From the NCBI GenBank assembly GCA_030648265.1, contig JAUSHX010000013.1, positions 3,030-67,029 on the forward strand: a DNA stretch of 64,000 bases. Direction: 5' to 3'. Below are positions 4,152 through 59,346 of this stretch, in pieces. Numbering within the stretch: the stretch's first letter is position 1; the number at the start of each line of letters is the position of its first letter. Source of the stretch: a bacterium. Lineage in GTDB: Bacteria > Patescibacteriota > Minisyncoccia > Phycocordibacterales > UBA2100. The notes beneath the pieces were generated by a model. It was not told the origin of the DNA. It searched no databases and saw only the letters and a program-made list of their open reading frames with translations. Made by a program: the position numbers and the translations under genes.

Positions 4152-4745
4152 ATGCGAACCTCACAATTCAAAGACTTAACCGCAACGCTCGCGCCATTAC
4201 TACGGGATAACGTGGACACTGACCAAATTATTCCCGCGCGTTACCTGACTGCCACCAATAAAAAAGGATTCGGCAAGCGGCTGTTCATGGATTTGCGCTA
4301 TGAGGAAGACGGAAAAACGCCGAGGCCGGATTTCGTCCTGAACCAAAAGAAATTCAAGGGCGCGAAAATCCTGCTCGGCCACAAAAATTTCGGCTGCGGC
4401 TCTTCCCGCGAACACGCTCCGTGGGCGCTTTTGGGGGCCGGATTTAATGCTGTTATCGCAATTTCATTCGCCGATATCTTCAGGAACAATTCGGCAAAAA
4501 ATGGACTGCTTCTAATTGAACTTCCGAGAAAAATAATAGACATGATGCACACCGAGGTTGTTGAGAATCCGAAAGAGAAAGCCGCTATCAACCTGAAGAA
4601 CCAAACAATAACGTGGAAAAAACAGGCTCATTCGTTCCCAATTAATCCATTCGTTAAGAGGTGCCTCATGGAAGGATTGGATGATATCGGCTACACTCTA
4701 AGCTTCGCAGACCAAATCAAGGCATACGAGCAAAAAACTAGATGA
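4152..4745 (+). CDS. leuD: 3-isopropylmalate dehydratase small subunit
   Basis: DNVDTDQIIPARYL, GCGSSREHAPWAL. Confidence 0.95.
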   Translation: MRTSQFKDLTATLAPLLRDNVDTDQIIPARYLTATNKKGFGKRLFMDLRYEEDGKTPRPDFVLNQKKFKGAKILLGHKNFGCGSSREHAPWALLGAGFNAVIAISFADIFRNNSAKNGLLLIELPRKIIDMMHTEVVENPKEKAAINLKNQTITWKKQAHSFPINPFVKRCLMEGLDDIGYTLSFADQIKAYEQKTR

Positions 4746-23752: not shown

Positions 23753-23912
23753 GTTAGAGATTCTTAGCGAATGATAATGAGATTAGAAGCTCTTACACCC
23801 AGCACCTTTGTTTCATTGAGAAACGAAGGTGCTGGGTCAAGAATATGTAATTCGCTCTGCTCATAACATCTTCTAGACATTACTACAGAGGTTATGCGTT
23901 GACAATGTTTTA
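23753..23912 (-). repeat. Family-1 element, copy 2
   Basis: CATGTTAGAGATTCTTAGCGAATGATAATGAGATTAGAAGCTCTTAC-ACCCAGCACCTTTGTTTCATTGAGAAACGAAGGTGCTGGGT-CAAGAATATGTAATTCGCTCTGCTCATAAC. Fills the trpF-ridA spacer. Confidence 0.85.
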
Positions 23913-24560
23913 TCACTCCTTTCGTTTCGCTCGCTCAATAAACAACTTTACCTTTTCCAAATCTTTTGTTCCATCAGGATTTGATACGCCGGAATTCACA
24001 TCAACCGCGTACGGATTCACGGTTTTGATTGCTTCTTCTACGTTATCGGGATTCAGGCCGCCCGCAAGAATGACGGGAATAGAAATTGATTCAACAATCT
24101 TCCGGCTGATATTCCAGTCGTGCGTACGCCCGGTCCCGCCGCGTACGCCGGTCTCTTTATTGAGCGTGTCCAGCGCGATTGCATCCGCCGCCTTCTCATA
24201 TTTTTTAGCTTCTGCAATAGAGTTTTCATCAGCGACGTTGAGGACTTTCCACACCTGTACTGCTAGTGCCTTTTTGACCTGAAGAATAGTTTCGGGCGTT
24301 GCGTCCCCATAGAGTTGGAGAATCTTGGCGCCTGTCGCTCGCGCAAGTTCTATCAATCGCTCTGATTCCACGACGCTCGTCACCATCACGCTGGATACGG
24401 AGGCCGGAAGCTTCGCGATAATCTTGGCGGCATTCTCCGATTCAAGGGGCGCACGCGCTCCTGTAAGCCCCACGTGGAATCCAAGCGCGTCCGCACCCGC
24501 CGCAAGAGCGGCAAGGGCATCTTCTTCTGAACGAATCCCGCAGATTTTAATTATGGCCAT
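23913..24560 (-). CDS. trpF: Phosphoribosylanthranilate isomerase
   Basis: IKICGIRSEEDA, ADALGFHV, AGGLNPDNV. Confidence 0.85.
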   Translation of the reverse strand: MAIIKICGIRSEEDALAALAAGADALGFHVGLTGARAPLESENAAKIIAKLPASVSSVMVTSVVESERLIELARATGAKILQLYGDATPETILQVKKALAVQVWKVLNVADENSIAEAKKYEKAADAIALDTLNKETGVRGGTGRTHDWNISRKIVESISIPVILAGGLNPDNVEEAIKTVNPYAVDVNSGVSNPDGTKDLEKVKLFIERAKRKE

Positions 24561-28773: not shown

Positions 28774-29859
28774 TCACGAGTTTTGCGCCTTGTTGCGCAG
28801 ATAGTGATCCATGATGACCAGCGCGGACATCGCGTCCACTATCGGAATCGCTCGCGGAAGGACGCACGGGTCGTGGCGGCCGGAGGCTTCTAGCTTGGTT
28901 GCCTCGCCTCCTTTTTTCACCGTGTCTTGCTCTTTCTTGATGGTTGAAACCGGCTTGAATACAACGCGGAAGTGAATTGTTTCCCCGCTTGAAATCCCGC
29001 CAATCGTACCGCCCGCGTTGTTCGTCTTTGTGTGTATTGTGCCATCCTTATCGGTGTAGAACGGGTCATTGTGTTCGCTCCCGCGCATGCCGACGCTCCG
29101 GAAGCCGAGCCCAATATCAAATCCCTTGACCGCATTGATTGAAAGCATCGCTTTCCCAAGGTCTGCATTGAGTTTATCAAACACCGGCTCGCCCAAACCA
29201 ACCGGGACATTCCGTATGACGCCTCTCACGACCCCGCCCACAGAATCGCCCTCAGATTTCACCTTTTCAACAAGCGCAATCATTTTTTCTGCCGATTTCT
29301 GGTCTGGGCAGCGGATGATATTTGATTCCACATCTTTCGCCGTGACCGTATTAAAATCCACGTCCGCGTGTATATCGCCGACTTGGTCCACGTAGCTGAT
29401 GATTTCTATGCCCAGCTTCTCTTTAAGGTATTTCTGCGCAATCGCACCCGCGGCGACGCGCGCAAGCGTCTCTCGCGCGGAAGCGCGCCCGGACCCCCTC
29501 CAGTCGCGGGCACCGTACTTCGCCTCGTAGGTGAAATCGGCATGCGACGGGCGGTACAAATCTTTGAGAGCCAGATAATCTTCGGGTTTTGTGTCTTCAT
29601 TGAGCACCATCATGAGAACCGGCGTACCCGTGGTCTTTCCCTCAAAGTAGCCGGAAAGAATATGAATTTTGTCCGCCTCTTTTCGGGGAGTCGTTATTTT
29701 ACTTTGCCCCGGGCGCCGCCTATCAAGCGCCACTTGAATTTCCTCCTCCGTTATCTCAATCCCCGGAGGGCACCCATCAACTACAACACCAACAGCCCCG
29801 CCATGCGATTCGCCGAATGTCGTTATCCGAAAGAGTTGTCCGAATGAATTTCCCGCCAT
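28774..29859 (-). CDS. aroC: Chorismate synthase
   Basis: [34 protein letters not shown]. Confidence 0.9.
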
Positions 29860-30028
29860 GTTAGATTTTGTTAACGAATGTAATGAGTTTAGAAAATCTT
29901 ACACCCAGCACCTTTCATGCATATTCTACCACTTAATCTGCGAATACCAGCTGTTGTTTGTGATTTAAATATAGCATCTGCCTAACGTTAAAGGTGCTGG
30001 GTTATAGAAAATATAGTCGCTTTGCTCC
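29860..30028 (-). repeat. Family-1 element, copy 3 (78-nt loop)
   Basis: ...TCTTAC-ACCCAGCACC-[loop]-GGTGCTGGGT-TATAGAAAATATAGTCGCTTTGCTCCTTATTTTC. Confidence 0.85.
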
Positions 30029-31846
30029 TTATTTTCTTATAACAACCCCTCTCTCCTGCAACTTTGCCACTATCTGCTCCACCGCGTGCTCCGGGGGCGC
30101 ACTTTCAGTGTCTATCGTCTCGTCAGCGGCCGCTTCGTAGAGCCCTGCCCTCTCCGCGAGCATTTTTTCCATCTCTTCCTGCGGTGTCGTCCCGGTAGTG
30201 AGTGCCGGCCGGTGAGAATCATCCTCCTCCATTCTGCTCAAAAGTATTTGAAGCGTTGCGCGCAGAAATATACACAGGCCGTTTTTCTTGACCGTCTCAA
30301 TGTTCTCCGAACGCGTGATAATCCCGCCTCCGGTAGAAATGACGGCGCCATTCTGCTCGGACACCTCGCGAATCATGTCGGATTCCAAATCCCTGAAATG
30401 GTCCCATCCAGATTTCTCCACGATATCCTTGATGCTCATGCCCGCTTTTTTTGCAACGAGTGAATCAATATCTTCGCATCTCTTTCCGAGGCGCTTCGCG
30501 AGAAGCCGAGCGACGGTCGTCTTCCCGCTCCCGCGCATGCCAATGAGAACAATGTTCGGGTCGCGCTCTGAAGTTGTGGTTTTAATGCCGATAGAATTCA
30601 ATTTCTCCCAGAACTCAGGAAATGTTTTCGTAACAACGTCAGGATTCCTTATTTCCATTCCTTGCATCTTGGTTCCTAAAACAGCGAATGCCATGGCCAT
30701 CCGGTGGTCCCAGTAGGTGTCTATGACCGCCGGTTTTGGATATCCTCCGTAAATCGTCATCGTGTCGGGGGTAGATTCGGAACGTATGCCCATTTTCGCG
30801 AGCTCTCTCTCAAGCGCCTCAACGCGCTCGGTTTCTTTCACCCGCAAGGAGCCGACTCCGGCAATATGAGTGGTCCCCGATACGCAGGCAGAAAGCGCGG
30901 CAAGCGTTTGAACCTGGTCCGGACAATCTTGCATGTTTATATCAACCGGCTTGATTCCGCGGCCTTGAATCGTTATTTGATTGTCGCCGTACTCAACCTC
31001 GTTCCCCATGTCGGCAAGGATTTTGAGGAATCCCATGTCGGCTTGCACCGATTTCGGGTTCATGTTTTTGAGCGTGATGCGCGATTGTGTAAGTGCGGCG
31101 ATAGCAAAGAAATATGAAGCGCTAGACGCATCACCCTCAACAATGTATTCATCAAGACCGTATTTTTGCCCTGCTGGAACGGCATAGGTGGATGCATCGG
31201 GAACTTCAACCTTCACGCCGAACCGCTTCATTGAATCAATGGTCATGTCAATATACGGCTTTGAGATTTGCTCGCCGATGACCTCAATATTCACTTCGCC
31301 GACCACGGGGGCAATCATGAGAATGGCCGAGAGGAATTGGCTGCTGACGGAGCCGTTCATCGTTATGGTGCCTGGGGTGAGTTTTGAGGAAGAGACGCGC
31401 ACCGGAGGAAATCCTTCTTTTTCAAGATATTCTATTTTTGCTCCGAGCTGGCGGAGAGCATTTACAAGGTCCCCGATTGGACGCTCATTCAAACGCCCCT
31501 CTCCCTGAATCGTCTTCTCTCCGGCAACAATGGAGGCAAGCGCGAGAATAAATCTGATGGTCGTGCCGGAAAGGTGCGCGTTGAGGTCGTACGAATTGTC
31601 AGCGACTGCGCGAATGTCTCCGGCGACTTCCAAATCGCCACCCTTTGAGACGACCTTGATTCCAAGCGTCTGAAGACAATCAATCATCGCCTTTGTGTCA
31701 TCGCTCACAAGCGGATTCTTTATCCGTACCGTTTTACCGACGAGTGCCGCCATAAGGAGCGCTCTGTTGGTGTAACTCTTGGAACCCGGAACAGAAATAG
31801 TAGCGTCTATGGGTTTCTCAAGCGGAAAAATCTTCGTTGTTTTCAT
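30029..31846 (-). CDS. aroA: Bifunctional EPSP synthase (AroA) fused to C-terminal shikimate kinase (AroK)
   Basis: The N-terminal 430 aa carry EPSP synthase motifs (PGSKSYTNRALL, domain repeats). The C-terminal 170 aa carry NIVLIGMRGSGKTTVARLLAKRLG. Confidence 0.85.
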   Translation of the reverse strand: MKTTKIFPLEKPIDATISVPGSKSYTNRALLMAALVGKTVRIKNPLVSDDTKAMIDCLQTLGIKVVSKGGDLEVAGDIRAVADNSYDLNAHLSGTTIRFILALASIVAGEKTIQGEGRLNERPIGDLVNALRQLGAKIEYLEKEGFPPVRVSSSKLTPGTITMNGSVSSQFLSAILMIAPVVGEVNIEVIGEQISKPYIDMTIDSMKRFGVKVEVPDASTYAVPAGQKYGLDEYIVEGDASSASYFFAIAALTQSRITLKNMNPKSVQADMGFLKILADMGNEVEYGDNQITIQGRGIKPVDINMQDCPDQVQTLAALSACVSGTTHIAGVGSLRVKETERVEALERELAKMGIRSESTPDTMTIYGGYPKPAVIDTYWDHRMAMAFAVLGTKMQGMEIRNPDVVTKTFPEFWEKLNSIGIKTTTSERDPNIVLIGMRGSGKTTVARLLAKRLGKRCEDIDSLVAKKAGMSIKDIVEKSGWDHFRDLESDMIREVSEQNGAVISTGGGIITRSENIETVKKNGLCIFLRATLQILLSRMEEDDSHRPALTTGTTPQEEMEKMLAERAGLYEAAADETIDTESAPPEHAVEQIVAKLQERGVVIRK

Positions 31847-32890: not shown

Positions 32891-33496
32891 TTATTTCTGG
32901 CTTAAGAAGTTGGCCAACAGTTGCTTACCTCCCTCGGTTGCGAAAGATTCCGGATGAAACTGAATGCCCTCCATCGGGTATACCTTGTGCCGCAATCCCA
33001 TTATTTCTCCAGTGTCGGGAGAAGTCGCCGTTATCGTGAGAACCTCCGGCAGCGTTTCTTTTTCCGCTACCAACGAATGGTACCGCATAACTTCAAGTTT
33101 CTGTGGGAGCCCGGTAAAAACCCCTCTGCCATCATGTTCTATGATGCTCGTTTTTCCATGCATGGGCTTTTGCGCGCGAATCACATTCCCGCCGAAGTAA
33201 TACGCCATGCCCTGCATTCCCAAGCACACGCCGAGAACGGGCGTTGTCTTTCCTACTGTTTTAAGGACGTCCGCGCATACGCCGAAATACTTATCCTCGC
33301 GCGGGTCGCCGGGCCCCGGGGAAATAATTATCCTGTCGTAGCGGCGTTTTTTTATTCCCGCGAGCGTTATTTCGTCATTCCTCACTACATCAAGAGTGAA
33401 CTTCTCGTGGCTCGCCGAAAGAATCTCCCCCACGTACTGGTAGAGGTTGAACGTGAACGAGTCGTAGTTGTCTATGATAAGGACTTTCATATTCAT
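32891..33496 (-). CDS. trpG: Anthranilate synthase component II (glutamine amidotransferase)
   Basis: VLIIDNYDSFTFNL, GVCLGMQ, HSL..E. Confidence 0.9.
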   Translation of the reverse strand: MNMKVLIIDNYDSFTFNLYQYVGEILSASHEKFTLDVVRNDEITLAGIKKRRYDRIIISPGPGDPREDKYFGVCADVLKTVGKTTPVLGVCLGMQGMAYYFGGNVIRAQKPMHGKTSIIEHDGRGVFTGLPQKLEVMRYHSLVAEKETLPEVLTITATSPDTGEIMGLRHKVYPMEGIQFHPESFATEGGKQLLANFLSQK

Positions 33497-34959
33497 GTTT
33501 GCGAAGCACCGAGGACTTTTTTCATTGCCGCTGATTTGTTTTGGATTTCCACGTATTCCTTCTTCGGTACGGAATCGTACACGATGCCTCCGCTTGTTTG
33601 CGTGTATGCGTCAGTGCCTGCGATAAAAACGGAGCGCAATGCAAGCGCGAACGTGCAATCGCCGTTAAACCCGAAATGTCCGACGCCTCCTCCATAGGGC
33701 CCCCGCGCCTCCTTCTCGTTAGCATCTATTATTTTTATCGTCTCTATCTTTGGCGTACCGCACACCGTTCCCATCGGAAACTGGCTCGCAAAACCGGAAA
33801 ACATATCTTCCTCGGGGCGGATGGTTCCCACCACCTCGCTTGAGATGTGCTGGACATGGCTGAATTTCTTCACGGTCATCAAATCGCGTATCTTTACGGT
33901 CCCGAATTTTGCCACTTTTCCGATGTCATTCCTGTGCAAGTCCACAAGCATATTGTGCTCCGCGCGCTCTTTTTCATCGTTCACGAGCTCGCGGGCTAGC
34001 TCTTGGTCCTCCTTAGGGTTCGCGCCTCGGCGAATCGTTCCCGCGAGCGGGCGCGTCGTCATTTCTCCGTCACGCAAAGAGAACAGGAGCTCAGGGCTCG
34101 CGCCGATGATTTTTTTACTTTGGAATTTAAGATAGTACATAAACGGCGATGGATTGATTTCGCGCAACCGTTCGTAAATCCCGACCGTGTCGCCGGTTAT
34201 CTTATACTTCGTCTTGAACCCGACCTCGCACTGAAACGTTTTTCCTTCTCTGATTTTTTCTTTCACATCCTCAACGATTTTCGCATGTTCCGCTTCCGAA
34301 AGACCTTCGTCTATACACTCCGCACTAAACGGCGCGGCCTCAATTTCTGACGCAATAATTTCTTTTAGAACCGCGCTTCTATCCTCGTCGTAGAAGAAAT
34401 ATGTAAGTTCGCCGGTCAGTTTATCTAGAATAAGTCCGTCCGTGTAAACGCCAAAAAGGAACTGGTCAAATTTTTCGTGCACCTTCACGTTTAGCGAGGG
34501 CTCCATGAGGTTAATCGCCTCGTAACTTAAATATCCAACGAGCCCCCCGTCGTAATTTCTTCCAATGGTGCGCTGCGGCATGATATCGCGCAGTGCGTAG
34601 TACGGATTCGGAACGGAATAGCTTGTGCCGTCAACGGTTAATTTGTTTCCTCTCCCTCCGATTAAATGCGCCGGTTCAAATCCGATTATGGAATAGCGGG
34701 AGAATTTCCCTTCCTCTCCCAACGACTCAAAAATAAAGCATGTGTCAAACCGGCGTTCTATTTTCTTGAACAAATCAAAAAACACTACGCCATCCGCAAG
34801 TTTGACGTATGTTGGCTTCTGCGAGATATGTATTTTCGGTAGGCTCGCCCCGTTAGAAATAGGACGCGCGTCCATAAAAGACGAGTCTTGGTTATGTTTT
34901 TTTGTTGTCATATGTTTTGTTGATGTGTCGCGTCCGCGATTTCTAATGGGGTTTTTCAT
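33493..34959 (-). CDS. trpE: Anthranilate synthase component I
   Basis: Chorismate-binding C-terminal motifs (GGGVGHFGFNGDCTFALALRS). Confidence 0.9.
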   Translation of the reverse strand: MKNPIRNRGRDTSTKHMTTKKHNQDSSFMDARPISNGASLPKIHISQKPTYVKLADGVVFFDLFKKIERRFDTCFIFESLGEEGKFSRYSIIGFEPAHLIGGRGNKLTVDGTSYSVPNPYYALRDIMPQRTIGRNYDGGLVGYLSYEAINLMEPSLNVKVHEKFDQFLFGVYTDGLILDKLTGELTYFFYDEDRSAVLKEIIASEIEAAPFSAECIDEGLSEAEHAKIVEDVKEKIREGKTFQCEVGFKTKYKITGDTVGIYERLREINPSPFMYYLKFQSKKIIGASPELLFSLRDGEMTTRPLAGTIRRGANPKEDQELARELVNDEKERAEHNMLVDLHRNDIGKVAKFGTVKIRDLMTVKKFSHVQHISSEVVGTIRPEEDMFSGFASQFPMGTVCGTPKIETIKIIDANEKEARGPYGGGVGHFGFNGDCTFALALRSVFIAGTDAYTQTSGGIVYDSVPKKEYVEIQNKSAAMKKVLGASQT

Positions 34960-35103
34960 GTTAGGGATTCTTAGCGAGCGATAGCGAGATTAGAAGCTCT
35001 TACACCCTGTTAAATGCGATTCTTCGAGTCGCCCCGCCCTTGGCGGGATTTAACAGGGTTAAGAATATGTAATTCGCTTCGCTCATAACATTTTCTAAAC
35101 AAA
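34960..35103 (-). repeat. Family-1 element, copy 4, with alternative stem ACCCTGTTAAAT/ATTTAACAGGGT
   Basis: Conserved arms (…GAGATTAGAAGCTCTTAC / TTAAGAATATGTAATTCGCTTCGCTCATAAC), but both halves of the stem are replaced by a different complementary pair. Immediately upstream of trpE. Confidence 0.85.
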
Positions 35104-41698: not shown

Positions 41699-42469
41699 TC
41701 ATTCTTTAGTCAAAATCTCCGGACCGTCTTTGGTAATGATGACCGTGTGTTCAAAGTGCGCTGTGCGGGAGCCGTCTTTTGTGCGGTAGGAGTGGCCGTC
41801 TTTGTCAACATAGAGTTCGCCGGAGCCGAGCGCCATCATCGGTTCTATCGCAATAACAAGTCCTTCTTCAAGTTTCACTCCGCTCCCAGGGTGCCCGAAA
41901 TTGGGCACGTGCGGTTCTTCGTGTACTTTGAGCCCCACCCCGTGGCCCGAGAGATTTCGCGGAAATCCAAAGCCGTATTTTTTCGCGATGCGCTCAACGG
42001 CATAGCCGATATCCCCTGTAGTATTGCCGATTTTCGCCACCGCGATTCCAATTGTAAGAGCCTCTTGCGTTCCGTTCAACAAACGTTCGTCTTCCGGGTT
42101 CCGTTTTGTTCCCGCAATTACGGTAACCGCCGAATCGGTAAAAAATCCTTCATGCTTTATTCCAAAATCAAGGCATACGACATCGCCCTCTTCTATAGAA
42201 GTGTCATTCAATGCGGCAGGGCTGTGAACGATAACGTCGTTCACCGAAACGCACAGGCCGGATGGATACGGCTCTTCATTTTTTCCGCCTTTGTATCCGT
42301 AAAACGCCAGTTCATCGCCGTCTTTCGCGACCATTTCCCGGGCCATATCTTCCAGCTCGCGCGGAGTAATGCCAACTTTTACCATCCCCGACAAAATACG
42401 TAAATGCTTCGCGAGCCGTCTCCCTCCCTCGCGCAGTGCTGATATTTCCGTATCTCTTCTCGCGATCAT
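41699..42469 (-). CDS. map: Methionine aminopeptidase type I
   Basis: Metal-ligand motifs: VCLDFG, HGVGL, EPM. Confidence 0.9.
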   Translation of the reverse strand: MIARRDTEISALREGGRRLAKHLRILSGMVKVGITPRELEDMAREMVAKDGDELAFYGYKGGKNEEPYPSGLCVSVNDVIVHSPAALNDTSIEEGDVVCLDFGIKHEGFFTDSAVTVIAGTKRNPEDERLLNGTQEALTIGIAVAKIGNTTGDIGYAVERIAKKYGFGFPRNLSGHGVGLKVHEEPHVPNFGHPGSGVKLEEGLVIAIEPMMALGSGELYVDKDGHSYRTKDGSRTAHFEHTVIITKDGPEILTKE

Positions 42470-43053
42470 GTAAGCTTCAGCGCCGAAAGAATATTTCTAT
42501 GAATAGTCGTGACGTCCGGTTCGCCATCAATCTCATGGATAGTGCGACAGCGGCTCTTCAGAAGTTCCAGTTGCGGTAGCACGTCGGTCTTCGTCCACGC
42601 AAGCCGTCTGCGGATTCCTTCCTCCGTGTCATCGTTGCGACCGCGGCCGATTAATCGTTTTACCGCCGTATCATCGGAAATGACAAGATTTACGACCTGC
42701 AAATCGTCTCGCTTGAAGAACTGCATCATGTCGTCAAACCCGCGGGTCTGATCGTCTCCGCGAGCAAGACCGTCCGCAATGATATGTTCTTCACCGGTGA
42801 AATTATCTACCAGTAATTTCGTCTGAAGATAAATGGCCATAAAGTCATAGATGCGTATGCCGTTGTCTATAATCTCACCGGTTAATTTGCCTGCGTATGT
42901 GCCTGTATCGCGCAGACTACGAAGTTCGTGACCCATGTCAATACGGATAACTTTGCGGTCGGACTTGGACTTCAGATAATCAACGAGCATCTGCACTTGC
43001 GTACCTTTGCCTGCGCCCTGAGAGCCGAAAAAAAGCAGCGTGACAGGCTTCAT
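42466..43053 (-). CDS. adk: Adenylate kinase
   Basis: GSQGAGKGTQ P-loop, LID-region arginines, and position in the conserved secY-adk-map order. Confidence 0.8.
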   Translation of the reverse strand: MKPVTLLFFGSQGAGKGTQVQMLVDYLKSKSDRKVIRIDMGHELRSLRDTGTYAGKLTGEIIDNGIRIYDFMAIYLQTKLLVDNFTGEEHIIADGLARGDDQTRGFDDMMQFFKRDDLQVVNLVISDDTAVKRLIGRGRNDDTEEGIRRRLAWTKTDVLPQLELLKSRCRTIHEIDGEPDVTTIHRNILSALKLT

Positions 43054-43153
43054 AAGAAAAGTTGACAGTTGACAGTTGACAGTTGACAGTGAAAAACATC
43101 TCGGCTTCGAGCTTCTGTAAACTGTAAACTGTTTGCTGTAAACTGCATGATTC
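43054..43153 (-). repeat. Family-4 intercistronic element: (GTTGACA)x4 ... (CTGTAAACTG)x3
   Basis: Tandem heptamers whose two arms are near-complementary (one mismatch per unit); lies between gmk and adk. Confidence 0.7.
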
Positions 43154-45027: not shown

Positions 45028-45111
45028 AAAAAGTTTACAGTTGACGGTGAACAGTTAACAGTAAAGAGGTCCCTGAGTTTCCTGTAATCTGTAAACTGTA
45101 GACTGTGAACT
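45028..45111 (-). repeat. Family-4 intercistronic element
   Basis: TTTACAGTTGACGGTGAACAGTTAACAGT ... CTGTAATCTGTAAACTGTAGACTG between rplO and secY. Confidence 0.65.
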
Positions 45112-46199: not shown

Positions 46200-46385
46200 A
46201 TCTTAGATTTAATTAGTGAGCGAAGCGAGCTTAGTAAATCTTAGACCCAGCACCACTTTTGAACTCCAGCAGTTCTTGCCGATGAGTTCTGGCTGTGATT
46301 GCTTTCGGTAGTTTTGCATAATTATCATAAGTTTCAAAAGTGGTGCTGGGTAAGTAAAATATAGTCGCTTTGCTCCTTATTTTAT
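46200..46385 (-). repeat. Family-1 element, copy 5 (stem ACCCAGCACCACTTTTGAA / TTCAAAAGTGGTGCTGGGT)
   Basis: Conserved arms. The loop is related to copy 15. Confidence 0.85.
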
Positions 46386-46724: not shown

Positions 46725-46836
46725 GTTAGTTTTTCTTAACGAGTGATAACGAGTTTAGAAACAACTTACACCCAGCACCTTTCGCGAAAGGTGCTGGGTA
46801 AAGAAATAGTAATTCATTTCATTCATAACGATTTCA
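46725..46836 (-). repeat. Family-1 element, copy 6 (fully palindromic core ACCCAGCACCTTTCGCGAAAGGTGCTGGGT)
   Basis: Fills the rplF-rplR spacer from the stop codon to the start codon. Confidence 0.9.
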
Positions 46837-47382: not shown

Positions 47383-47650
47383 GTTAGTTTTTCTTAACGA
47401 CCGAGCACTTTCTGACGATGCAGGTCTGAATAACTGTTTTAATGTTCCTTTTCGTGTTCATGTTTTTATAATCAATTAGCTTCTGAAAGTGCTCGGGGGT
47501 TTAGAAACAACTTACACCCAGCACCTTTAACGTACAGAATGCCGCGGGTTGGCGGAGTGTATTCCTTTGCGTTGTGCTTGATAAGTAAGTTCATATTGCT
47601 GGAAAAGGTGCTGGGTAAGTAAAATATAGTCGCTTCGCTCCTTATTTTAC
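47383..47650 (-). repeat. Family-1 element, copy 7, with a second hairpin (CCGAGCACTTTC...GAAAGTGCTCGG) nested in its arm
   Basis: Conserved arms. An extra 95-nt hairpin sits at about 47404-47500. Confidence 0.8.
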
Positions 47651-48046: not shown

Positions 48047-48167
48047 GTTAGTTTTTCTTGCGAGCGTAAGCGAGTTAGAAACAACTTACACCCAGCACCT
48101 TTGTTTCATTGAGAAACGAAGGTGCTGGGTAAAGAAATAGTAATTCATTTTATTCATAACGATTTCT
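48047..48167 (-). repeat. Family-1 element, copy 8
   Basis: ACCCAGCACCTTTGTTTCATTGAGAAACGAAGGTGCTGGGT core. Confidence 0.9.
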
Positions 48168-48353
48168 TTACCAAGAGGACTTCTTAATTCCCGGAATGTT
48201 TCCTTCAAGCGCCTCCTCGCGGAAGCAAATACGGCAAAGATTGAAATCACGCAGGAAACCGCGCGGGCGCCCGCATTTGAAACAGCGCCGGATTACCCGG
48301 CTCTTGAACTTGGGCGGTCTTTGCGCCTTTACAACCATTGACCTCTTTGCCAT
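48168..48353 (-). CDS. rpsN: 30S ribosomal protein S14 type Z (61 aa, zinc-binding)
   Basis: [23 protein letters not shown]. Confidence 0.9.
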
Positions 48354-48395
48354 ATCAGATTTTGTTACGAGCGAAGCGAGTTAGAAAATCTTATA

Positions 48396-48688
48396 CCCAG
48401 CACCTTGTTTGTTTACGACAGACTGTTTTTAAGGCGATTCTTTACATAAGTGCGAGCGTTGCCATATTGCTTGAGTTGCAATTCGCGCCTTACCGCGTCT
48501 TGCTTCGCTTTATAGCTCTCGACATAGACATACTCCCATGGTCGACCGCGACTCGTTGCCGTGACTTGTCCGCTGTTGTGCGAAGCAAGACGCTCATCAA
48601 GATTCTCGGTTCTGCCAAAGTAAAGAACGCCTTTTTCAACACTGCGGATTACGTACACATGGTACATAAACAAACAAGGTGCTGGGTT
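48396..48688 (-). mobile_element. Candidate GIY-YIG mini-element: 21-bp perfect terminal inverted repeats enclosing a single nuclease ORF
   Basis: The TIRs are identical over 21 bp. The ORF start lies 10 nt inside one TIR and the stop overlaps the other. Copies 2, 8 and 17 look like internal-deletion derivatives (ACCCAGCACCTTTGTTTC...GAAACGAAGGTGCTGGGT). Confidence 0.6.
48413..48667 (-). CDS. GIY-YIG nuclease family protein (UPF0213/YhbQ-like), 84 aa
   Basis: MYHVYVIRS..GVLYFGRTENLDERLASHNSG...WEYVYVESY...A..RE.QLK. The ORF track starts 2 codons earlier at a TTG. Confidence 0.75.
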   Translation of the reverse strand: MYHVYVIRSVEKGVLYFGRTENLDERLASHNSGQVTATSRGRPWEYVYVESYKAKQDAVRRELQLKQYGNARTYVKNRLKNSLS

Positions 48689-48929
48689 ACGAAAATCATA
48701 GTCGCCTCGCTTCGCTACGGCTTCTTGATTTTCAGTAATACCCCGAAGGAGAAGCTAGAAACTCCTGCATCCTGCCTTGCGGCTGAAGATTACGGAAGCT
48801 TCTTCGCGTGACCCTGTTCTTCGTCCAACTTGTGGTTGAAAAACAAAGCCCCCAACGAGGCTCCGAAAATATACGCGAGATGCGGATGAAAGTCAAACTT
48901 CAAAAAGTCTGTTCTGAAACTAATTCGGA

Positions 48930-49529
48930 TCAAAACTTGTCTATATCGTCATTTGCTTCCCGACGCTCTTTTCTTCTTTTGAATATTTCTTCTTGAGAAA
49001 GTTTTCTACCGGGTACAAACCCCTCTCGCTTTTCCTGCTTTTGGCCTGTTTTAACTAGCATTTTCTTCCATGCGGCATCCAACGCGGGCCCAAGTTCATC
49101 AATAGGGAACCTGCGGAGAATCATCTCCCTTTCGATAGACCACGTATGCTCACCGTGCGTGGCGTAGTCAGACCCCCGTTCTCTGCGCACAGCGCTCTTT
49201 TGTTGATGAGAATCTTTTCCGAATGTGATTTTGCTGTTTATAGTACCTATGGTTTCCTCCTTTTCATTGGGATTGCGGAGGTAGTTAGTCATTCTTGATG
49301 AATAATCTACTATTTTTATCATTTCGTCATCAGAAATAGGGATTTTAAGTTCCTCTATTTCTTTTCTGAGGAAATCTTCAAAAATTGCATTGTCTACCAT
49401 TTCCTCTCCCGCGGTCTGTCCCGATTCTTTTGCTTTATCCGCCATGAGTCCTTCAAACTTCTCCGTACTCGCCTCGTGTTCTTTCTCTCGCTCGGTAGAA
49501 GCGTTTCTTTTGCCCATTTCTAGTGCCAT
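48930..49529 (-). CDS. Hypothetical hydrophilic protein (199 aa)
   Basis: ORF only; charged and low-complexity; no recognisable domain. Confidence 0.35.
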   Translation of the reverse strand: MALEMGKRNASTEREKEHEASTEKFEGLMADKAKESGQTAGEEMVDNAIFEDFLRKEIEELKIPISDDEMIKIVDYSSRMTNYLRNPNEKEETIGTINSKITFGKDSHQQKSAVRRERGSDYATHGEHTWSIEREMILRRFPIDELGPALDAAWKKMLVKTGQKQEKREGFVPGRKLSQEEIFKRRKERREANDDIDKF

Positions 49530-49657
49530 AATTTTATGCCTTATTTCCTAATTTCTTAATGCTACCCCCACCCTCCAGATACGCAAGCGGCAAAAGTGGA
49601 CATCAAAAGTCTCTCCGCCTGCTTTTTTTCTCTTCCCTTTCACCTTTCTGGGGATAA

Positions 49658-49703
49658 CCCATGTCCCTATCCAGTGGCTATAGCTATAATATAAGGACAT
49701 GGG
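49658..49703. promoter_or_regulatory. Hairpin CCCATGTCC-CTATCCAGTGGCTATAGCTATAATATAA-GGACATGGG overlapping the start of PaaX-like paralog 2
   Basis: Contains a perfect TATAAT 8 nt before the ATG. A near-identical copy lies at about 50311-50356 just after the gene. Confidence 0.75.
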
Positions 49704-50286
49704 AAGAATGGAGCTCGCGGCAAAAAAGCGCCGGAGGAAAGAGAACGTCCAACAGATAGTGCTGGGAGTAGTCGCGGTTGCGGGCATACTTGCAGTAACA
49801 ATGATTGCGCCCAATATTTTCCAAGCTATTCCGCGCCTGTTGGGCGATAAATATAAGTTTGGTTATCGAGCGCGTACCGCCGCCGGCCGCCTTGCGCAAA
49901 AGGGATACGTACGCTTCGTGGAACGAAACGGCAAGAAGTTTGTGGAGATAACAGAGAAAGGAAAACGCGCATACGCATTGGAAAAGGCAAGATTCACGGC
50001 ATACACAAACATCAACAAGCGCTGGGACAAACGCTGGCGAATTGTTGCTTTTGACATCCCAGAGACTCGGCGAGGAACACGCGAACGTGTGCGCAGACTG
50101 ATGCGCGAATTCGGGTTCCTTAAACTACAAGACAGCGTTTGGGTATTTCCCTACGACTGCGAGGAACTTATTACAATGATGAAGGCAGAACTGCGGATTG
50201 GTAAGGATATCCTGTACATAATCGCGGACACTATCGAGAACGACCAATGGGTGAGAAGACAGTTTAACCTTCTCAAAGAATCATAG
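49699..50286 (+). CDS. Membrane-anchored wHTH + PaaX_C/Cas2-like domain protein, paralog 2
   Basis: TM helix VLGVVAVAGILAV; wHTH AAGRLAQKGYVRFVERNGKKFVEITEKG; RWDKRWRIVAFDIPETRRGTRERVRRLMREFGFLKLQDSVWVFPYDCEEL. Confidence 0.6.
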   Translation: MGRMELAAKKRRRKENVQQIVLGVVAVAGILAVTMIAPNIFQAIPRLLGDKYKFGYRARTAAGRLAQKGYVRFVERNGKKFVEITEKGKRAYALEKARFTAYTNINKRWDKRWRIVAFDIPETRRGTRERVRRLMREFGFLKLQDSVWVFPYDCEELITMMKAELRIGKDILYIIADTIENDQWVRRQFNLLKES

Positions 50287-50310
50287 TGTCGTCCTATTTC
50301 TCTCGGTTTT

Positions 50311-50356
50311 CCATATCCCTATCCAGTGGCTATAGCTATAATATAAGGACATTGGG
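50311..50356. promoter_or_regulatory. Second copy of the paralog-2 hairpin
   Basis: CCATATCCCTATCCAGTGGCTATAGCTATAATATAAGGACATTGG. Confidence 0.75.
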
Positions 50357-50413
50357 CCATGCAAGATACACCTCCAAAGAGTGCGCGGGCGACGACAGTA
50401 TCTTTCTGTTTTT

Positions 50414-50959: not shown

Positions 50960-51090
50960 GTGTTAGAGATTCTTAGTGAGTGCTAACGAGCTTAGAAGCT
51001 CTTACACCCTGTTAAATGCGACTTCGTCGCCCCGCCTTTGGCGGGATTTAACAGGGTCAAGAAATTATAATTCGCTTTGCTCATAAAAAT
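50960..51090 (-). repeat. Family-1 element, copy 10, with alternative stem ACCCTGTTAAAT/ATTTAACAGGGT (same variant as copy 4)
   Basis: Loop GCGACTTCGTCGCCCCGCCTTTGGCGGG, similar to the copy-4 loop. Confidence 0.85.
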
Positions 51091-51399: not shown

Positions 51400-51573
51400 G
51401 TTAGAGATTATTAGCGAGTATTCCGAGCTTAGAAGCTCTTACACCCAGCACCTTTTACGCCAATGCTGTTGGTTGCAGGATAATACTGTCTAAGCGCGAT
51501 TTGGGCAAGAAAATTCATAGAGATTTAAAGGTGCTGGGTTTAGAAAAATATAGTCGCGTTGCTCCTTATTTTT
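51400..51573 (-). repeat. Family-1 element, copy 11 (78-nt loop identical to copy 12)
   Basis: The loop TTTTACGCCAATGCTGTTGGTTGCAGGATAATACTGTCTAAGCGCGATTTGGGCAAGAAAATTCATAGAGATTTAAA is repeated in 51946-52100. Confidence 0.85.
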
Positions 51574-51945: not shown

Positions 51946-52100
51946 GTTAGTTTTTGTTACGAGCGAAGCGAGTTAGAAAATCTTACACCCAGCACCTTTT
52001 ACGCCAATGCTGTTGGTTGCAGGATAATACTGTCTAAGCGCGATTTGGGCAAGAAAATTCATAGAGATTTAAAGGTGCTGGGTAATGTAAAACATAGTCG
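51946..52100 (-). repeat. Family-1 element, copy 12
   Basis: Same loop as copy 11. Confidence 0.85.
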
Positions 52101-52370
52101 CTACGCTTCTTGTTTTACTATTATGAACCGTTTGAGCTTGGAAATAGGTCGTGTTTCGCGGATTGTCACCTTCTCACCGACCGCCGCCGTGTTCCCCGGA
52201 TTGTGTACAAGGAATTTCTTACTGCGCTTCATGTACTTCTTGTATTTTGGATGCTTCACGTAACGTTCAACCTGAACGGTGATCGTGTCTTTCATTGCAG
52301 ACTTGACGACCACTCCCTCAAGGAATTTTCCTTCCTGCTCTATACTTGTTGAATTATTTTGTTTTTCCAT
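52101..52370 (-). CDS. rpsQ: 30S ribosomal protein S17
   Basis: GVVVKSAMKDTITVQVERYVKHPKYKK. Confidence 0.9.
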   Translation of the reverse strand: MEKQNNSTSIEQEGKFLEGVVVKSAMKDTITVQVERYVKHPKYKKYMKRSKKFLVHNPGNTAAVGEKVTIRETRPISKLKRFIIVKQEA

Positions 52371-52503
52371 ATGTATGTTCCAATCTACGAATATATTTCA
52401 ATCTACGAATATATTCCAATCTACAAATAACTACAAATGAGCGGCGTCGTATATTCGTAGCCATTCGTAGCATTCGCATCATTTGTAGATTGGGATTTCA
52501 TAT
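52371..52503 (-). repeat. Family-2 intercistronic repeat, copy 3
   Basis: CCAATCTACGAATATATTTCAATCTACGAATATATTCCAATCTACAAATAACTACAAATG...CATTTGTAGATTGGGAT. Confidence 0.8.
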
Positions 52504-52698
52504 TTATTTATTTTGTTCGTTCTTCCTTGATTGCACCTCGGTCAATATTTGCGCTATCTCTCTGCGCACATTCCTGCCTTCCCTGACATCCCGTACTCGG
52601 CTTCCTGCTCCACCGAAGCGGAACACCCGCAACGCTTCGCGCTTTTCCGCAACAGTACGCAGTAATTCCTCTGTGCTTTGTGATTTTATGTCATTCAT
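52504..52698 (-). CDS. rpmC: 50S ribosomal protein L29 (ORF track extends 15 codons upstream into the repeat; likely start MNDIKSQ)
   Basis: STEELLRTVAEKREALRVFRF. Confidence 0.8.
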   Translation of the reverse strand: MNDIKSQSTEELLRTVAEKREALRVFRFGGAGSRVRDVREGRNVRREIAQILTEVQSRKNEQNK

Positions 52699-52813
52699 AA
52701 TGTTCCAATCTACGAATATATTCCAATCTACAAATACCTGCAAATGAGCGACACCGTATATTCGTAGCCATTCGTAGTATTCGTATCATTTGCAGATTGG
52801 GACTTCATAGGGT
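52699..52813 (-). repeat. Family-2 intercistronic repeat, copy 4
   Basis: CCAATCTACGAATATATTCCAATCTACAAATACCTGCAAATG...CATTTGCAGATTGGGAC, with compensatory T/C changes in the stem. Confidence 0.8.
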
Positions 52814-53236: not shown

Positions 53237-53473
53237 GGTAGATTTTTACTGAGCGAAGCGATGATAATCGGTATTAATACTCATATTGGCTCCTCGGCTC
53301 GGAAAAGAAAGTGAGTACACTTCCTTTTCACTCGCCCTACGTCGCCAATAAAAATCACCACCCAGCACCTTTACACCCAAAGTGCTTTCCGATGTGCAAA
53401 GGATTTTTGTAACTCTATTTTGGATATTGTAGTTCATAGTGCTGTAAAAGGTGCTGGGTCTCGATAAAAATAG
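53237..53473 (-). repeat. Family-1 element, copy 13 (arm carries an extra insertion)
   Basis: ACCCAGCACCTTTACACCC...GCTGTAAAAGGTGCTGGGT, with about 90 nt of extra sequence in the arm nearest rplP. Confidence 0.8.
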
Positions 53474-54148: not shown

Positions 54149-54309
54149 GTTAGATTTTGTTATGAGCGAAGCGAGTTAGAAAATCTTACACCCAGCACCT
54201 TTTGCGATAATAATGCTTTGGGTCGCAGGATGATACTGTTTAGCGGCAATTTGAGCAATGAAGTTCACAGTGCTTAAAAGGTGCTGGGTCAAAATTGTGA
54301 TATTGGTAT
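54149..54309 (-). repeat. Family-1 element, copy 14 (loop related to copies 11 and 12)
   Basis: Loop TTTTGCGATAATAATGCTTTGGGTCGCAGGATGATACTGTTTAGCGGCAATTTGAGCAATGAAGTTCACAGTGCTTAAAA. Confidence 0.85.
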
Positions 54310-54675: not shown

Positions 54676-54861
54676 ATCTTAGATTTAGTTAGTGAGCGAA
54701 GCGAGCTTAGTAAATCTTAGATCCAGCACTAATTTTGAGCTCCAGCATGTTTTGCTAATACGTTCTGGTCGTGGTTGGTTTCGATAGTTTTGCATATATT
54801 TATGAAGTTTCAAAATTGGTGCTGGATAAGTAAAATATAGTCGCTTCGCTCGTTATTTTAC
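54676..54861 (-). repeat. Family-1 element, copy 15, with stem ATCCAGCACTAATTTTGA / TCAAAATTGGTGCTGGAT (covarying version of copy 5)
   Basis: Arms and loop about 80% identical to copy 5, with paired substitutions in the stem. Confidence 0.85.
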
Positions 54862-55209: not shown

Positions 55210-55400
55210 GTTAGAGGTTTGTTATGAGCGAAGCGAATTAGAAACTCTTACACCCAGCACCATTTTGATATCCGTATCATCATTTGCCATTTTGAGATTC
55301 TGCTGAGACCGTCTCAACAAAGCACTGCATTTGAGAGTAAGTCGCAGGATACCAAAATGGTGCTGGGTTGTGAAAATCATTGTCGCCTCGCTTCGCTACG
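55210..55400 (-). repeat. Family-1 element, copy 16 (its arm next to the stem is near-identical to the arm of the GIY-YIG copy)
   Basis: GGTGCTGGGTTGTGAAAATCATTGTCGCCTCGCTTCGCTACGGCTCCTTGATTTTC compared with copy 9 GGTGCTGGGTTACGAAAATCATAGTCGCCTCGCTTCGCTACGGCTTCTTGATTTTC. Confidence 0.85.
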
Positions 55401-56341: not shown

Positions 56342-56460
56342 GTTAGTTTTTCTTAACGAGTAATCGAGTTTAGAAACAACTTACACCCAGCACCTTTGTT
56401 TCATTGAGAAACGAAGGTGCTGGGTCATGAAACTGTAATTCGCTTTGCTCATAATAATTT
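56342..56460 (-). repeat. Family-1 element, copy 17
   Basis: ACCCAGCACCTTTGTTTCATTGAGAAACGAAGGTGCTGGGT core. Confidence 0.9.
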
Positions 56461-58319: not shown

Positions 58320-58500
58320 TGTGAACGCAGTGAACTAGGAAATCTTACACCCAGCACCATTTTTGCATCCCTACGATTCGTATTACTTCCCGATTTGGTT
58401 GAGACTGGCTCAACAAAGTCAGACACTTTTCACGCTAGAACGGATACAAAAATGGTGCTGGGTCGTGAGAATTATAGTCGCGCACTGCTCGCTCCTTAAT
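58320..58500 (-). repeat. Family-1 element, copy 18 (loop related to copy 16)
   Basis: ACCCAGCACCATTTTTGCATCC...TTGAGACTGGCTCAACAAAG...CAAAAATGGTGCTGGGT. Confidence 0.8.
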
Positions 58501-58779: not shown

Positions 58780-59346
58780 TCACGATAGTCCGAATCGTTT
58801 TTTGAGCGGGATGTCACCCTCGATGGTGTCAACAATCATATAGAGAACATCTCTCCCGACGTGAAAATCGGCCTTAATCATAGTAATAAGGTCTTCGCAA
58901 TCATATGGATACACCCATACGCTGTCTTGAAGTCGCACGAAGCCGATATCTTGAAGTATGTGCCGTAATTTGTCTCGCAATCCCTTGCGATATTCTGGAA
59001 TATCAAAAACTAACACGCGCCACTTGCGGTCCCAATGCCGTGGCTTGTCTTCGGAATAATCGCGCGCCCGAAGTATACGGAGTGCGCACTCGCCTTTTGC
59101 GGTGAGCCGCAACTTTTTGCCTTCCCACGCGAGAAGCCCTGCTCGCGCAAGCCTGTCGCAAGAACGTTCCACGACATTTTTCTGCCGCGGCGACCGTATG
59201 ATTCCTAGTTTTGCCATAGCCCCGACAACGTTTGGAGCGACAATAAATACGCTCACGAGTCCGGCAAACTTGACCGAATCAAGGATAATCCTCTTGAGTT
59301 CATTTTTACGCGTTCGTCTTTCGCTTTCCGCTTCCTTAATCCCCAT
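58780..59346 (-). CDS. Membrane-anchored wHTH + PaaX_C/Cas2-like domain protein, paralog 3
   Basis: TM helix FAGLVSVFIVAPNVV; wHTH RLARAGLLAWEGKKLRLTAKGE; HWDRKWRVLVFDIPEYRKGLRDKLRHILQDIGFVRLQDSVWVYPYDCEDL. Confidence 0.6.
   Translation of the reverse strand: MGIKEAESERRTRKNELKRIILDSVKFAGLVSVFIVAPNVVGAMAKLGIIRSPRQKNVVERSCDRLARAGLLAWEGKKLRLTAKGECALRILRARDYSEDKPRHWDRKWRVLVFDIPEYRKGLRDKLRHILQDIGFVRLQDSVWVYPYDCEDLITMIKADFHVGRDVLYMIVDTIEGDIPLKKRFGLS

Follow-up and report, generated by a model that had tools for sequence, protein, structure and literature searches.

The 64,000-nucleotide (nt) stretch of DNA analysed here (the window: positions 3,030 to 67,029 of contig JAUSHX010000013.1, GenBank assembly GCA_030648265.1, from a bacterium of the Patescibacteriota lineage UBA2100) carries, directly upstream of the ribosomal-protein gene rpsN, a small cassette in which a gene for an 84-amino-acid (aa) GIY-YIG nuclease occupies the loop of a long inverted-repeat stem. 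Comparison with its relatives showed this cassette to be conserved and mobile; it has moved horizontally or been subject to gene conversion, and its copies have exchanged modules and become nested in one another. We consider it probable, at roughly 60%, that it is a mobile gene-in-a-stem element resembling the intervening sequences (IVSs) of ribosomal RNA (rRNA) genes, the nuclease of which would probably recognise its own hairpin. A preliminary description of this DNA had pointed to a compact single-gene unit bounded by inverted repeats and sharing its core and both outer flanks with a repeat family (family 1) present elsewhere in the window, and this was borne out.

The GIY-YIG gene and its stem

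The two arms, at 48395-48415 (ACCCAGCACCTTGTTTGTTTA) and 48667-48687, form a 21-nt inverted repeat of 100% complementarity with a spacing of 251 nt around an intact 84-aa open reading frame (ORF), just as first described. With one G:U pair allowed the cassette stem reaches 23 base pairs (bp), in which the ATG start is paired with the last sense codon and the stop (CGT/AA), and the GIY-YIG ORF is exactly the loop of this stem, from start to stop. The outer half of the stem is G+C-rich and the inner half A+U-rich, and the 406-nt cassette transcript (48340-48745, minus strand) folds much better than shuffled sequences (z = -6.7). The ORF at 48413-48673 on the minus strand encodes 86 aa if read from a TTG; from the ATG at 48667, the start that all homologues share, it encodes 84 aa. 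This ATG overlaps its arm by 1 nt, and does not lie 10 nt inside the repeat as had been proposed; the stop codon (TAA, 48413-48415) does lie inside the other arm. Since the genes are on the minus strand, the element is located upstream (5') of rpsN in the sense of transcription and not after it. Its surroundings are also more than a simple spacer: the rplE-rpsN interval measures 2.06 kb and carries in addition a 199-aa ORF (48930-49529, minus strand) and a PaaX_M/Cas2-like gene (49699-50286, plus strand). The features of the locus, in the order of transcription, are:

48840-48896, minus strand: promoter-like site TTGACT-17-TATATT, then a G+C hairpin and a run of T; upstream edge of the high-identity island described below
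48688-48737, minus strand: 5' flank hairpin, stem GAAAATCA/TGATTTTC, loop GCCGTAGCGAAGCGAGGCGAC, fold -16.2 kcal/mol
48667-48687, minus strand: 5' arm of the central stem (mRNA sense), core ACCCAGCACC plus extension TTGTTTGTTT, abutting and pairing the ATG
48413-48667, minus strand: gene for the 84-aa single-domain GIY-YIG nuclease, Slx1/UPF0213-like lineage
48395-48415, minus strand: 3' arm of the central stem (mRNA sense), extension AAACAAACAA plus core GGTGCTGGGT, holding the stop codon
48354-48394, minus strand: 3' flank hairpin ATAAGATTTT...AAAATCTGAT, its end abutting the ATG of rpsN (48353)
48168-48353, minus strand: rpsN (S14, 61-aa zinc-ribbon type; Pfam Ribosomal_S14, 2.7e-22), the host gene behind the 3' flank of the cassette

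The architecture of the 5' flank hairpin and its covarying stems recur in other copies and in relatives, and in the cassette its loop is complementary to that of the 3' flank. A sigma-70-type promoter was not detected in the 5' flank of the cassette, the sole good match being located further upstream. The promoter-like site has its best match at 48896-48868 (10 of 12 positions) and is followed by the terminator-like hairpin at 48865-48844; judged by its motifs, the module may work as a promoter. A similar arrangement (TTGACT-17-TATAGT, hairpin and T run) precedes the cassette of the relative L011 at ~2775-2845, and the module of the window is 92-98% identical to that of the relative L042, against 65-85% for the coding flanks. 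The Rfam scan of the window returned no family at gathering thresholds, and no tRNAs were found.

The 84-aa protein matched the Pfam GIY-YIG model PF01541 over residues 3-76 with E = 3.3e-16 and 59.8 bits (cut-off 22.6). In 25 homologues of 55-95% identity the residues Y5, Y16, G18, R26, H30, N31, E50, E62, and N70 are invariant, as is a family-specific C-terminal motif, LKQYGNARTYVKxR. Based on alignment to UPF0213 and Slx1 and on general knowledge of the fold, Y5, Y16, R26, H30, E62, and N70 would constitute the catalytic set (two Tyr, Arg, His/Tyr, the metal-binding Glu, and Asn). With these residues intact and the profile match clear, the initial identification as a GIY-YIG protein stands. 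Pairwise ratios of non-synonymous to synonymous substitution (dN/dS) of 0.03-0.16 point to strong purifying selection and a functional protein.

The AlphaFold2 model (pLDDT 85.8) predicts one domain consisting of the catalytic part and one C-terminal helix. Its best Foldseek match was Slx1 (TM 0.68, root-mean-square deviation 1.8 Å, 38% identity), the nine best matches were all Slx1, UPF0213 or HIGLE, and I-TevI and UvrC-N scored below these. The nearest solved sequences, according to phmmer against PDB (1zg2, 2.2e-5; 1ywl, 1.1e-3; SLX1, 2.8e-3), were the UPF0213 proteins BH0048 and EF2693, and SLX1. The protein can hence be assigned from sequence and predicted structure to the Slx1/UPF0213 (YhbQ-like) lineage, at the level of lineage only (Foldseek E ~3e-3). 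Slx1-type enzymes are structure-specific nucleases. Searches of NCBIfam and PHROGs gave nothing useful for either the nuclease or the 199-aa ORF.

Relatives, insertion sites and mobility

The protein search yielded 42 close homologues, nearly all of exactly 84 aa and all from metagenomes or metagenome-assembled genomes; the few with a taxon label are Patescibacteria. The intact loci recovered represent about 25 distinct contexts; in each of them the gene is placed in a stem of the same type and reads in the same direction as the host unit. Only in L033, a decaying copy with a premature stop and one damaged arm, did the ORF lack a complete pair of flanking inverted repeats, in agreement with the preliminary description. 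The cassette is conserved over 51-99% protein identity and changes in the stem are compensatory. The core 10-mer is unchanged in most cassettes, down to ~55-60% protein identity, and the stem extension covaries (TTGTTTGTTT/AAACAAACAA; TTATTTGTTT/AAACAAATAA in L019; TTTTT/AAAAA). With the most distant proteins the core is altered by one or a few bases, partly compensated (CCCAGCACTT...; CTCAACAC/GTGTTGAG in L040).

The features downstream of cassettes include fusA, rpsN (the same site as in the window), rpsS, rplJ, gap, rpsL, rplK, hsp20, sodA, and others, so that the target genes on the mRNA side are mostly ribosomal-protein, translation and other housekeeping genes. In L036, L037, L040, L062, and L039 the cassette is inserted in a 16S rRNA gene, at two different positions, and in L057 it is found just upstream of the 16S 5' end; the placements in L036, L040, L062, L039, and L057 were checked with the Rfam small-subunit rRNA models. 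What had been taken for a targeting of intercistronic sites as such is therefore better described as location directly 5' of start codons and at 16S rRNA helix tips. The hallmark of an rRNA IVS, an inverted-repeat-bounded insertion at a helix tip, is displayed by the relatives L036, L040, and L062 and not by the copy in the window. In mRNA contexts the two flank hairpins accompany the stem, even at 54-61% protein identity, and in rRNA contexts the stem is bare.

Two side observations concern the copies at rRNA genes. In L036, L037, L062, and L057 a TATAAT box (TGCTATAAT in L062) is present within the loop, 6-8 nt before the GIY-YIG ATG, and the copies in ribosomal operons have no such box there; this suggests that rRNA-embedded copies may have their own promoter and a near-leaderless mRNA. 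In L040 (9662-12631) a group I intron (11178-11456) shares the 16S gene with the GIY-YIG stem, and a stretch immediately downstream of this gene (12542-12631) matches a group II intron domain.

Mobility, which the preliminary description had implied, is indicated by the occurrence of the cassette at no fewer than 10 non-orthologous sites and by its similarity between genomes, which exceeds that of the flanking ribosomal genes. L042 carries the cassette at the same site as the window: the GIY-YIG proteins share 99% aa identity with a proportion of synonymous differences (pS) of 0.16, compared with 76-87% identity (rpsN 98%) and a pS of 0.52-0.74, with synonymous sites near saturation, for the neighbouring ribosomal genes. 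In a sliding comparison of the two, an island of 92-100% identity extends from ~48880 to 48373 in a background of 65-85%. It is interrupted only by the 5' flank (~48760-48690, 65-67% identical), which was swapped for another subtype. At the elements of the rpsN>rpsH and rpsH>rplF spacers, modules of 5' flank plus central hairpin were exchanged between window and L042 and the site-specific 3' flank was kept.

Orthologous spacers differ among relatives, and in L042 some are occupied by a repeat family of unrelated sequence. In L011, which is more distant, the cassette is present and the other spacers are short (4-55 nt) and element-free. Upstream of rpsS, homologous flanks enclose a 117-nt copy in the window and the GIY-YIG gene in L014. 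The loop of the 3' flank hairpin of the L042 cassette contains a further, bare hairpin of 99 nt, which is absent from the window and L027; together with the nested hairpin at 47403-47494 in the window, this indicates that hairpin loops serve as insertion sites, like the helix tips of rRNA.

Further observations were made on the surroundings of the cassettes. The rplE-rpsN interval upstream of the cassette is a variable hot spot (window 48354-50413; L042 1395-3000; L011 2392-3000), with a two-gene pair resembling a toxin-antitoxin system by eye plus a 200-aa homologue in L042 and an HTH_8 gene in L011. Other cassettes likewise follow a foreign gene within the operon, such as a UDG gene before fusA or a LamG-domain gene before rpsS. 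In the L010 contig the upstream context of the fusA site (S7, UDG) is joined to the 3' flank of the rpsS site and the start of rpsS (compared with L001 and L014), which is either an assembly jump or a true recombination between two cassette copies in one population. The window contains two ~190-aa genes with a PaaX central Cas2-like domain (E ~1e-19), at 49699-50286 (plus strand) and 58780-59346 (minus strand), one of which adjoins the cassette while the other heads the ribosomal-protein operon. A phage origin was considered and rejected: among IMG/VR viral contigs there was no relative of the protein and there were no paired hairpins, and the 38 matches to the 15-mer GGTGCTGGGTGTAAG were all unpaired and chance-like.

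Hairpin-only copies

At no more than one mismatch the core ACCCAGCACC has 32 matches in the window, with 2.3 expected by chance. These pair into 15 hairpins including that of the cassette (14 besides it), where ~1 pair would be expected in 64 kb. The total hairpin lengths are 30, 41, ~100, ~115, and 293 nt, and in the short copies the arms are only 4-20 nt apart. With a profile of the 3' flank, 17 copies were counted in the window, in line with the 17 other spacers said to share the conserved flanks; all are co-oriented with, and flush against, a start codon, and 13 of them sit in the S10-spc ribosomal-protein operon. The copies besides the cassette, with their relatives of other core, are:

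48090-48130, minus strand: hairpin-only copy of 41 nt with both flanks, rpsN-rpsH
47516-47616, minus strand: hairpin-only copy of 101 nt, rpsH-rplF; its 3' flank loop holds the nested hairpin 47403-47494, core GAGCAC/GTGCTC
46770-46799, minus strand: hairpin-only copy of 30 nt, rplF-rplR; the element is the whole spacer, from stop to start
46245-46351, minus strand: hairpin-only copy of 107 nt, rplR-rpsE
51443-51539, minus strand: hairpin-only copy of 97 nt, rplN-rplX; loop identical to that of the 51987 copy
51987-52083, minus strand: hairpin-only copy of 97 nt, upstream of rplN
53360-53459, minus strand: hairpin-only copy of 100 nt, rpsC-rplP; 3' flank atypical, expanded
54190-54289, minus strand: hairpin-only copy of 100 nt, rplV-rpsC
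54721-54827, minus strand: variant-core copy (ATCCAGCAC...), rpsS-rplV
55252-55368, minus strand: hairpin-only copy of 117 nt, upstream of rpsS, the site at which L014 has the GIY-YIG gene
56385-56425, minus strand: hairpin-only copy of 41 nt, rplW-rplB
58349-58463, minus strand: hairpin-only copy of 115 nt, upstream of rplC
29903-30002, minus strand: hairpin-only copy of 100 nt, aroA/aroK-aroC
23797-23837, minus strand: hairpin-only copy of 41 nt, between trpF and a RidA/L-PSP gene
4079-4108, plus strand: hairpin-only copy of 30 nt, leuC-leuD; the single plus-strand copy, its flanks inverted and so co-oriented with the plus-strand genes
51006-51057, minus strand: same flanks around another central hairpin, ACCCTGTTAAAT...ATTTAACAGGGT, rplX-rplE; second copy at 35004-35059

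In the mRNA sense an element consists of a 5' hairpin, a central ACCCAGCACC...GGTGCTGGGT stem with variable loop, and a 3' hairpin. The stem of the 5' hairpin often includes the stop codon of the upstream gene and its loop is typically AAGGAGCGAAGCGAC; this hairpin was defined by inspection and folding of each copy, as MAFFT misaligned the stems and automatic alignment and folding gave no consensus. The 3' hairpin is ~45 nt long and its final bases run into the ATG of the next gene. Over 26 distinct copies it covaries (GTAAG..CTAAC, CTAAG..CTAAG, ATAAG..CTAAT), with swaps from A-U to U-A and from U-A to G-C. In three copies the same flanks enclose a different central hairpin, ACCCTGTTAAAT in two and ATCCAGCAC in one. 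Continuous pairing between the 5' and 3' flank loops is seen in the GAGCGAAGCGA / TCGCTTCGCTC subtype; as a general feature it was rejected, since on inspection other flank subtypes do not have it.

The genes of the window generally have no Shine-Dalgarno sequence, so that the A-rich region ahead of the start codon is provided by the element. The only frequent AAGGAG is situated within the loop of the 5' hairpin of the element, at 100-300 nt from the next start codon.

The ~100-nt loops (47516-47616, 51443-51539, 51987-52083, 54190-54289; L041 285-379) each hold a short ORF starting MN... (MNFLAQIALRQYYPATNSIGVKGAG, VNFIAQIAAKQYHPATQSIIIAKGAG, MNLLIKHNAKEYTPPTRGILYVKGAG), which reads through the 3' arm in the same frame in each case (AAA GGT GCT GGG). 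Between the copies at 51443 and 54190 there are ~6 synonymous and ~7 non-synonymous differences, so the ORF could be a translated mini-ORF or reflect a constraint on the RNA. A derivation of these mini-ORFs, or of the medium-sized loops, from deleted GIY-YIG genes was suggested by a loop peptide, MNFLAQIALRQYYPAT..VK, loosely similar to the C-terminal LKQYGNARTYVK, and was rejected because the family profile matched only the real gene in the window.

A second, unrelated intercistronic repeat family of ~115 nt (...AATCTACAAATGATACGAATACTACGAATGGCTACGAATAT...TTTGTAGATTGGAATATATTCGTAGATTGG...) also ends at start codons. It was found at 51946-52813 in the window (rplP>rpmC and rpmC>rpsQ spacers) and at 732-848 and 4845-4980 in L042, where it fills spacers that carry family-1 elements in the window.

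Interpretation and further observations in the window

The rRNA IVSs exemplified by the 23S rRNA of Leptospira and Coxiella are one close parallel. They share with the present element a stem of terminal inverted repeats, an ORF in the loop and a location at rRNA helix tips, and its relatives occur in 16S rRNA at two or more sites; the copy in the window and most relatives differ in residing in the leaders of mRNAs or between cistrons and in having two additional flank hairpins, which provide the stretch ahead of the following start codon. For bacteria of the Candidate Phyla Radiation (CPR), rRNA insertions that are not introns and contain GIY-YIG ORFs have already been published (Tsurumaki et al., 2024; PMC11270868). 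In that study the term "stem-loop" refers to rRNA secondary structure alone, the words "hairpin" and "inverted repeat" do not occur, and the ORF-enclosing stem, the conserved core, the mRNA-leader sites, and the hairpin-only family are not described; our literature searches turned up no account of them elsewhere.

The Ssn nucleases are single-domain GIY-YIG proteins that bind and cut genomic hairpin repeats as single-stranded DNA (ssDNA), and Ssn/NTS was likened by its authors to insertion sequence (IS) elements and REP/RAYT (Chenal et al., 2025; PMC11893778). With these two precedents in print, the layout is less out of the ordinary than the preliminary description had held. Common to Ssn/NTS and the present system are a single-domain GIY-YIG protein of <100 aa, a gene embedded in a hairpin repeat that is scattered between genes in many copies, and an oriented repeat with a conserved non-palindromic flank. 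Of these traits the one-domain 84-aa protein and the 15 ACCCAGCACC hairpins in 64 kb are present here, the latter being multi-copy only in near relatives. In contrast to Ssn, whose gene lies between two complete repeats, a single split hairpin here pairs start and stop; the nearest solved relatives are UPF0213 and Slx1, and the cassette keeps to two settings, rRNA genes and the start codons of genes for ribosomal proteins, translation and other housekeeping functions. The SRM/NTS motif HGTCWYN(0-2)YYVSBRHN(0-5)WNVSBRGN(0-2)RNCYNB had 0 matches on both strands of the window (shuffle mean 0.5).

REP/REPIN-RAYT systems ("REPtrons") and IS200/IS605 elements resemble the cassette in having a single gene, for a nuclease or a transposase, between the inverted halves of a short palindrome dispersed in intergenic regions, and in their proposed action on ssDNA hairpins. 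Their enzymes (RAYT, TnpA) are however HUH Y1 enzymes and not GIY-YIG proteins, and REPs neither sequester start and stop in one stem nor are tied to start codons or rRNA. REP/RAYT systems are also discussed in PMC11893778. GIY-YIG homing endonucleases (I-TevI, T4 Seg) have the same catalytic core, are selfish genes in or next to essential, well-expressed genes, are more similar between genomes than their flanks, and can decay. Unlike them, the protein studied here has no DNA-binding domain (84 aa versus ~200-250 aa), its free-standing ORF is associated with no intron ribozyme (0 Rfam matches in the window), intron or intein, and its many target contexts have the hairpin alone in common. The Neisseria Correia and the enterobacterial ERIC/IRU elements are imperfect palindromes of ~100-150 nt in operons, co-transcribed and forming hairpins that RNases can process. 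They are palindromes of a similar kind within operons, with size variants arising by internal insertion, but have no known cognate gene inside a copy, end in TA duplications or other termini, and are not flush with start codons. By analogy, the element would resemble an rRNA IVS and an Ssn/NTS or REP/RAYT pair in its working and a homing endonuclease gene in its spread, and it cannot be counted as an established member of these families.

Under the explanation that we prefer, a mobile IVS-like element, the 84-aa GIY-YIG gene, which fills the loop of the ~23-bp stem, would depend for its expression on a promoter or on read-through, and the cassette sits in sense within host units that are presumably strongly transcribed, as judged by the identity of their genes. 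In mRNA contexts it brings along two flank hairpins, the 3' one ending at the host ATG, and in rRNA a bare stem at helix tips. At the RNA level, an endonuclease specific for double-stranded RNA (dsRNA) of the RNase III type would cut the insert out at the long stem, so that the host mRNA or rRNA remains functional, the sequestered GIY-YIG start codon is freed and the nuclease mRNA becomes translatable. This step is proposed on the model of rRNA IVSs, whose excision by RNase III is not followed by religation (PMC11270868). At the DNA level, the nuclease would recognise its own hairpin where this is extruded, as ssDNA or as a cruciform, from DNA under heavy transcription, and would nick or cut there, and repair from another copy would spread or exchange loop contents and cassettes. 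Recognition of its own hairpin is considered likely because core and protein are conserved and diverge together, because of the Slx1-like fold, and because of the Ssn precedent; the island of high identity, the exchange of modules and the nested copies would all be accounted for by such cutting and by repair templated on a second copy. Hairpin-only copies would be non-autonomous relatives or targets that expanded in this lineage. That they are mobilised by this nuclease is the weakest step, because their loops are unrelated to the gene and because the copies are seen only in near relatives of the window.

A more pointed version of the same idea is put forward tentatively, and we regard it as possible and rather doubtful: a protein-only analogue of mobile introns acting on structure and not on sequence, in which an Slx1-like mini-nuclease would recognise and cut its own CCAGCAC hairpin, extruded under heavy transcription, and would be copied, or exchange loop cargo, into any hairpin loop, those of mRNA leaders and the tips of rRNA helices included, and in which the RNA stem would then be removed by a dsRNA nuclease, rendering the insertion phenotypically silent and releasing the nuclease mRNA, with the hairpin-only copies of the ribosomal-protein operon spacers as non-autonomous offspring.

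Several points weigh against the mobile IVS-like element. Stem mismatches in the sense strand show a modest excess of G:U (16) over A:C (6) among copies that are non-independent, and selection on the stem at the RNA and DNA levels is therefore inseparable. The strong purifying selection fits a domesticated host function as well. Comparisons of filled with other sites revealed no target-site duplication, a weak negative given that a clean empty site of the full cassette was not recovered. A six-frame hmmsearch of the window with the GIY-YIG family profile found the real gene only and no trace in the medium-sized loops; the loops are thus unrelated to the gene and a simple relation of autonomous element to deletion derivative is unsupported. 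Hence the earlier view of the cassette as the least-decayed member of family 1 holds for the shared core and flanks and fails for such a descent. Hairpin-only copies were seen only in near relatives (the window, L014, L027, L028, L041/42), and most GIY-YIG cassettes are solitary in the DNA examined, with no extra hairpins nearby. Finally, the cleavage specificity, the RNase III processing and the direction of transfer are what we infer.

Two alternatives were weighed. One would see a domesticated Ssn-type system, that is, a site-specific ssDNA nuclease kept by the host, with the ACCCAGCACC hairpins as recognition sites of some host function (e.g., recombination or control of incoming DNA) and the gene merely lying within one such site. 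It can appeal to the Ssn precedent (a single-domain protein of ~94 aa, a gene flanked by hairpin repeats, hundreds of copies per genome), to a core that is unchanged in most cassettes and diverges, partly compensated, only with the most distant proteins, and to the dN/dS of 0.03-0.16. We nevertheless rate it as unlikely, as the published SRM motif is absent from the window, the gene lies inside one split hairpin instead of between two complete repeats, the best neighbours in sequence and fold are UPF0213 and Slx1 (Ssn itself being compared by description only), most cassettes have no extra hairpins nearby, and the cassette moves between sites and lineages and decays (L033) in a selfish-like manner. 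The other alternative, to which we give a rather low probability, makes the tripartite hairpins host or independently mobile RNA modules for processing, stability or translation start, and the GIY-YIG gene an opportunistic passenger without a role in the spread of hairpin-only copies. The uniform orientation of the copies (17/17) and their position flush with a start codon, in a genome that lacks Shine-Dalgarno sequences, the covarying flank hairpins, the loops unrelated to the gene, the other central hairpins (ACCCTGTTAAAT) on the same flanks, and the second repeat family in equivalent L042 spacers all speak for it. Against this, the phylogenetic range of the GIY-YIG cassette is much broader than that of the hairpin-only copies, its core is retained even by the flankless copies in 16S rRNA, and L011, with a cassette and short element-free spacers elsewhere, is hard to square with a general host requirement.

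More conventional explanations fare worse. A cut-and-paste IS, with 21-bp terminal inverted repeats bound by a GIY-YIG transposase and short copies as miniature inverted-repeat transposable elements, would account for perfect repeats around a single ORF and for many short copies with the same ends. It is very improbable: compensatory substitutions in the arms keep their pairing, the stem takes in both the start and the stop codon, target-site duplications were not observed, the repeats of short copies, 4-20 nt apart, are simple hairpins, the medium loops are not deletion derivatives, and the protein is an 84-aa catalytic domain with no known transposase fold. The arms, initially named terminal inverted repeats, thus behave as two halves of a single stem, of RNA or of ssDNA. 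Bacteria commonly have small GIY-YIG genes of the UPF0213 type, and an ordinary YhbQ-like housekeeping gene could by chance lie between palindromic, terminator-like sequences; in view of the exact arms and their covariation across at least 25 loci, the 10 or more non-orthologous sites including rRNA genes, and a gene far more similar between genomes than its neighbours, the chance of this is practically negligible.

The element offers an architectural account of the unexplained GIY-YIG-encoding non-intron insertions in rRNA genes of CPR/Patescibacteria, and its occurrence extends to the mRNA leaders of ribosomal-protein, translation and other housekeeping genes. It joins three separate literatures, on rRNA IVSs, on hairpin-repeat nucleases (Ssn/NTS, REP/RAYT) and on homing endonucleases. 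The 84-aa nuclease with its 10-bp hairpin core could, if Ssn-like, provide a new structure- or ssDNA-specific reagent. The ribosomal-protein operon of a streamlined genome is here densely occupied by dynamic, structured intercistronic elements without Shine-Dalgarno sequences, which bears on how internal cistrons start translation in such organisms.

Other features of the window were noted in passing. Heptamer-like repeat runs (CTGTCAACTGTCAACTGTCAACTGTCAACTT; CTGTTAACTGTTCACCGTCAACTGTAAACTT) directly precede two start codons, at 43054-43095 and 45028-45070, in the minus-strand upstream regions of the gene 42466-43053 and of secY. The window further encodes (2649-4745, 23913-24560, 28774-31846, 33493-34959) leuC/leuD-type aconitase-family subunits, phosphoribosylanthranilate (PRA) isomerase, anthranilate synthase, a fusion of 5-enolpyruvylshikimate-3-phosphate (EPSP) synthase and shikimate kinase, and chorismate synthase. 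Such biosynthesis genes of the leu, trp, and aro type are unusual for Patescibacteria.

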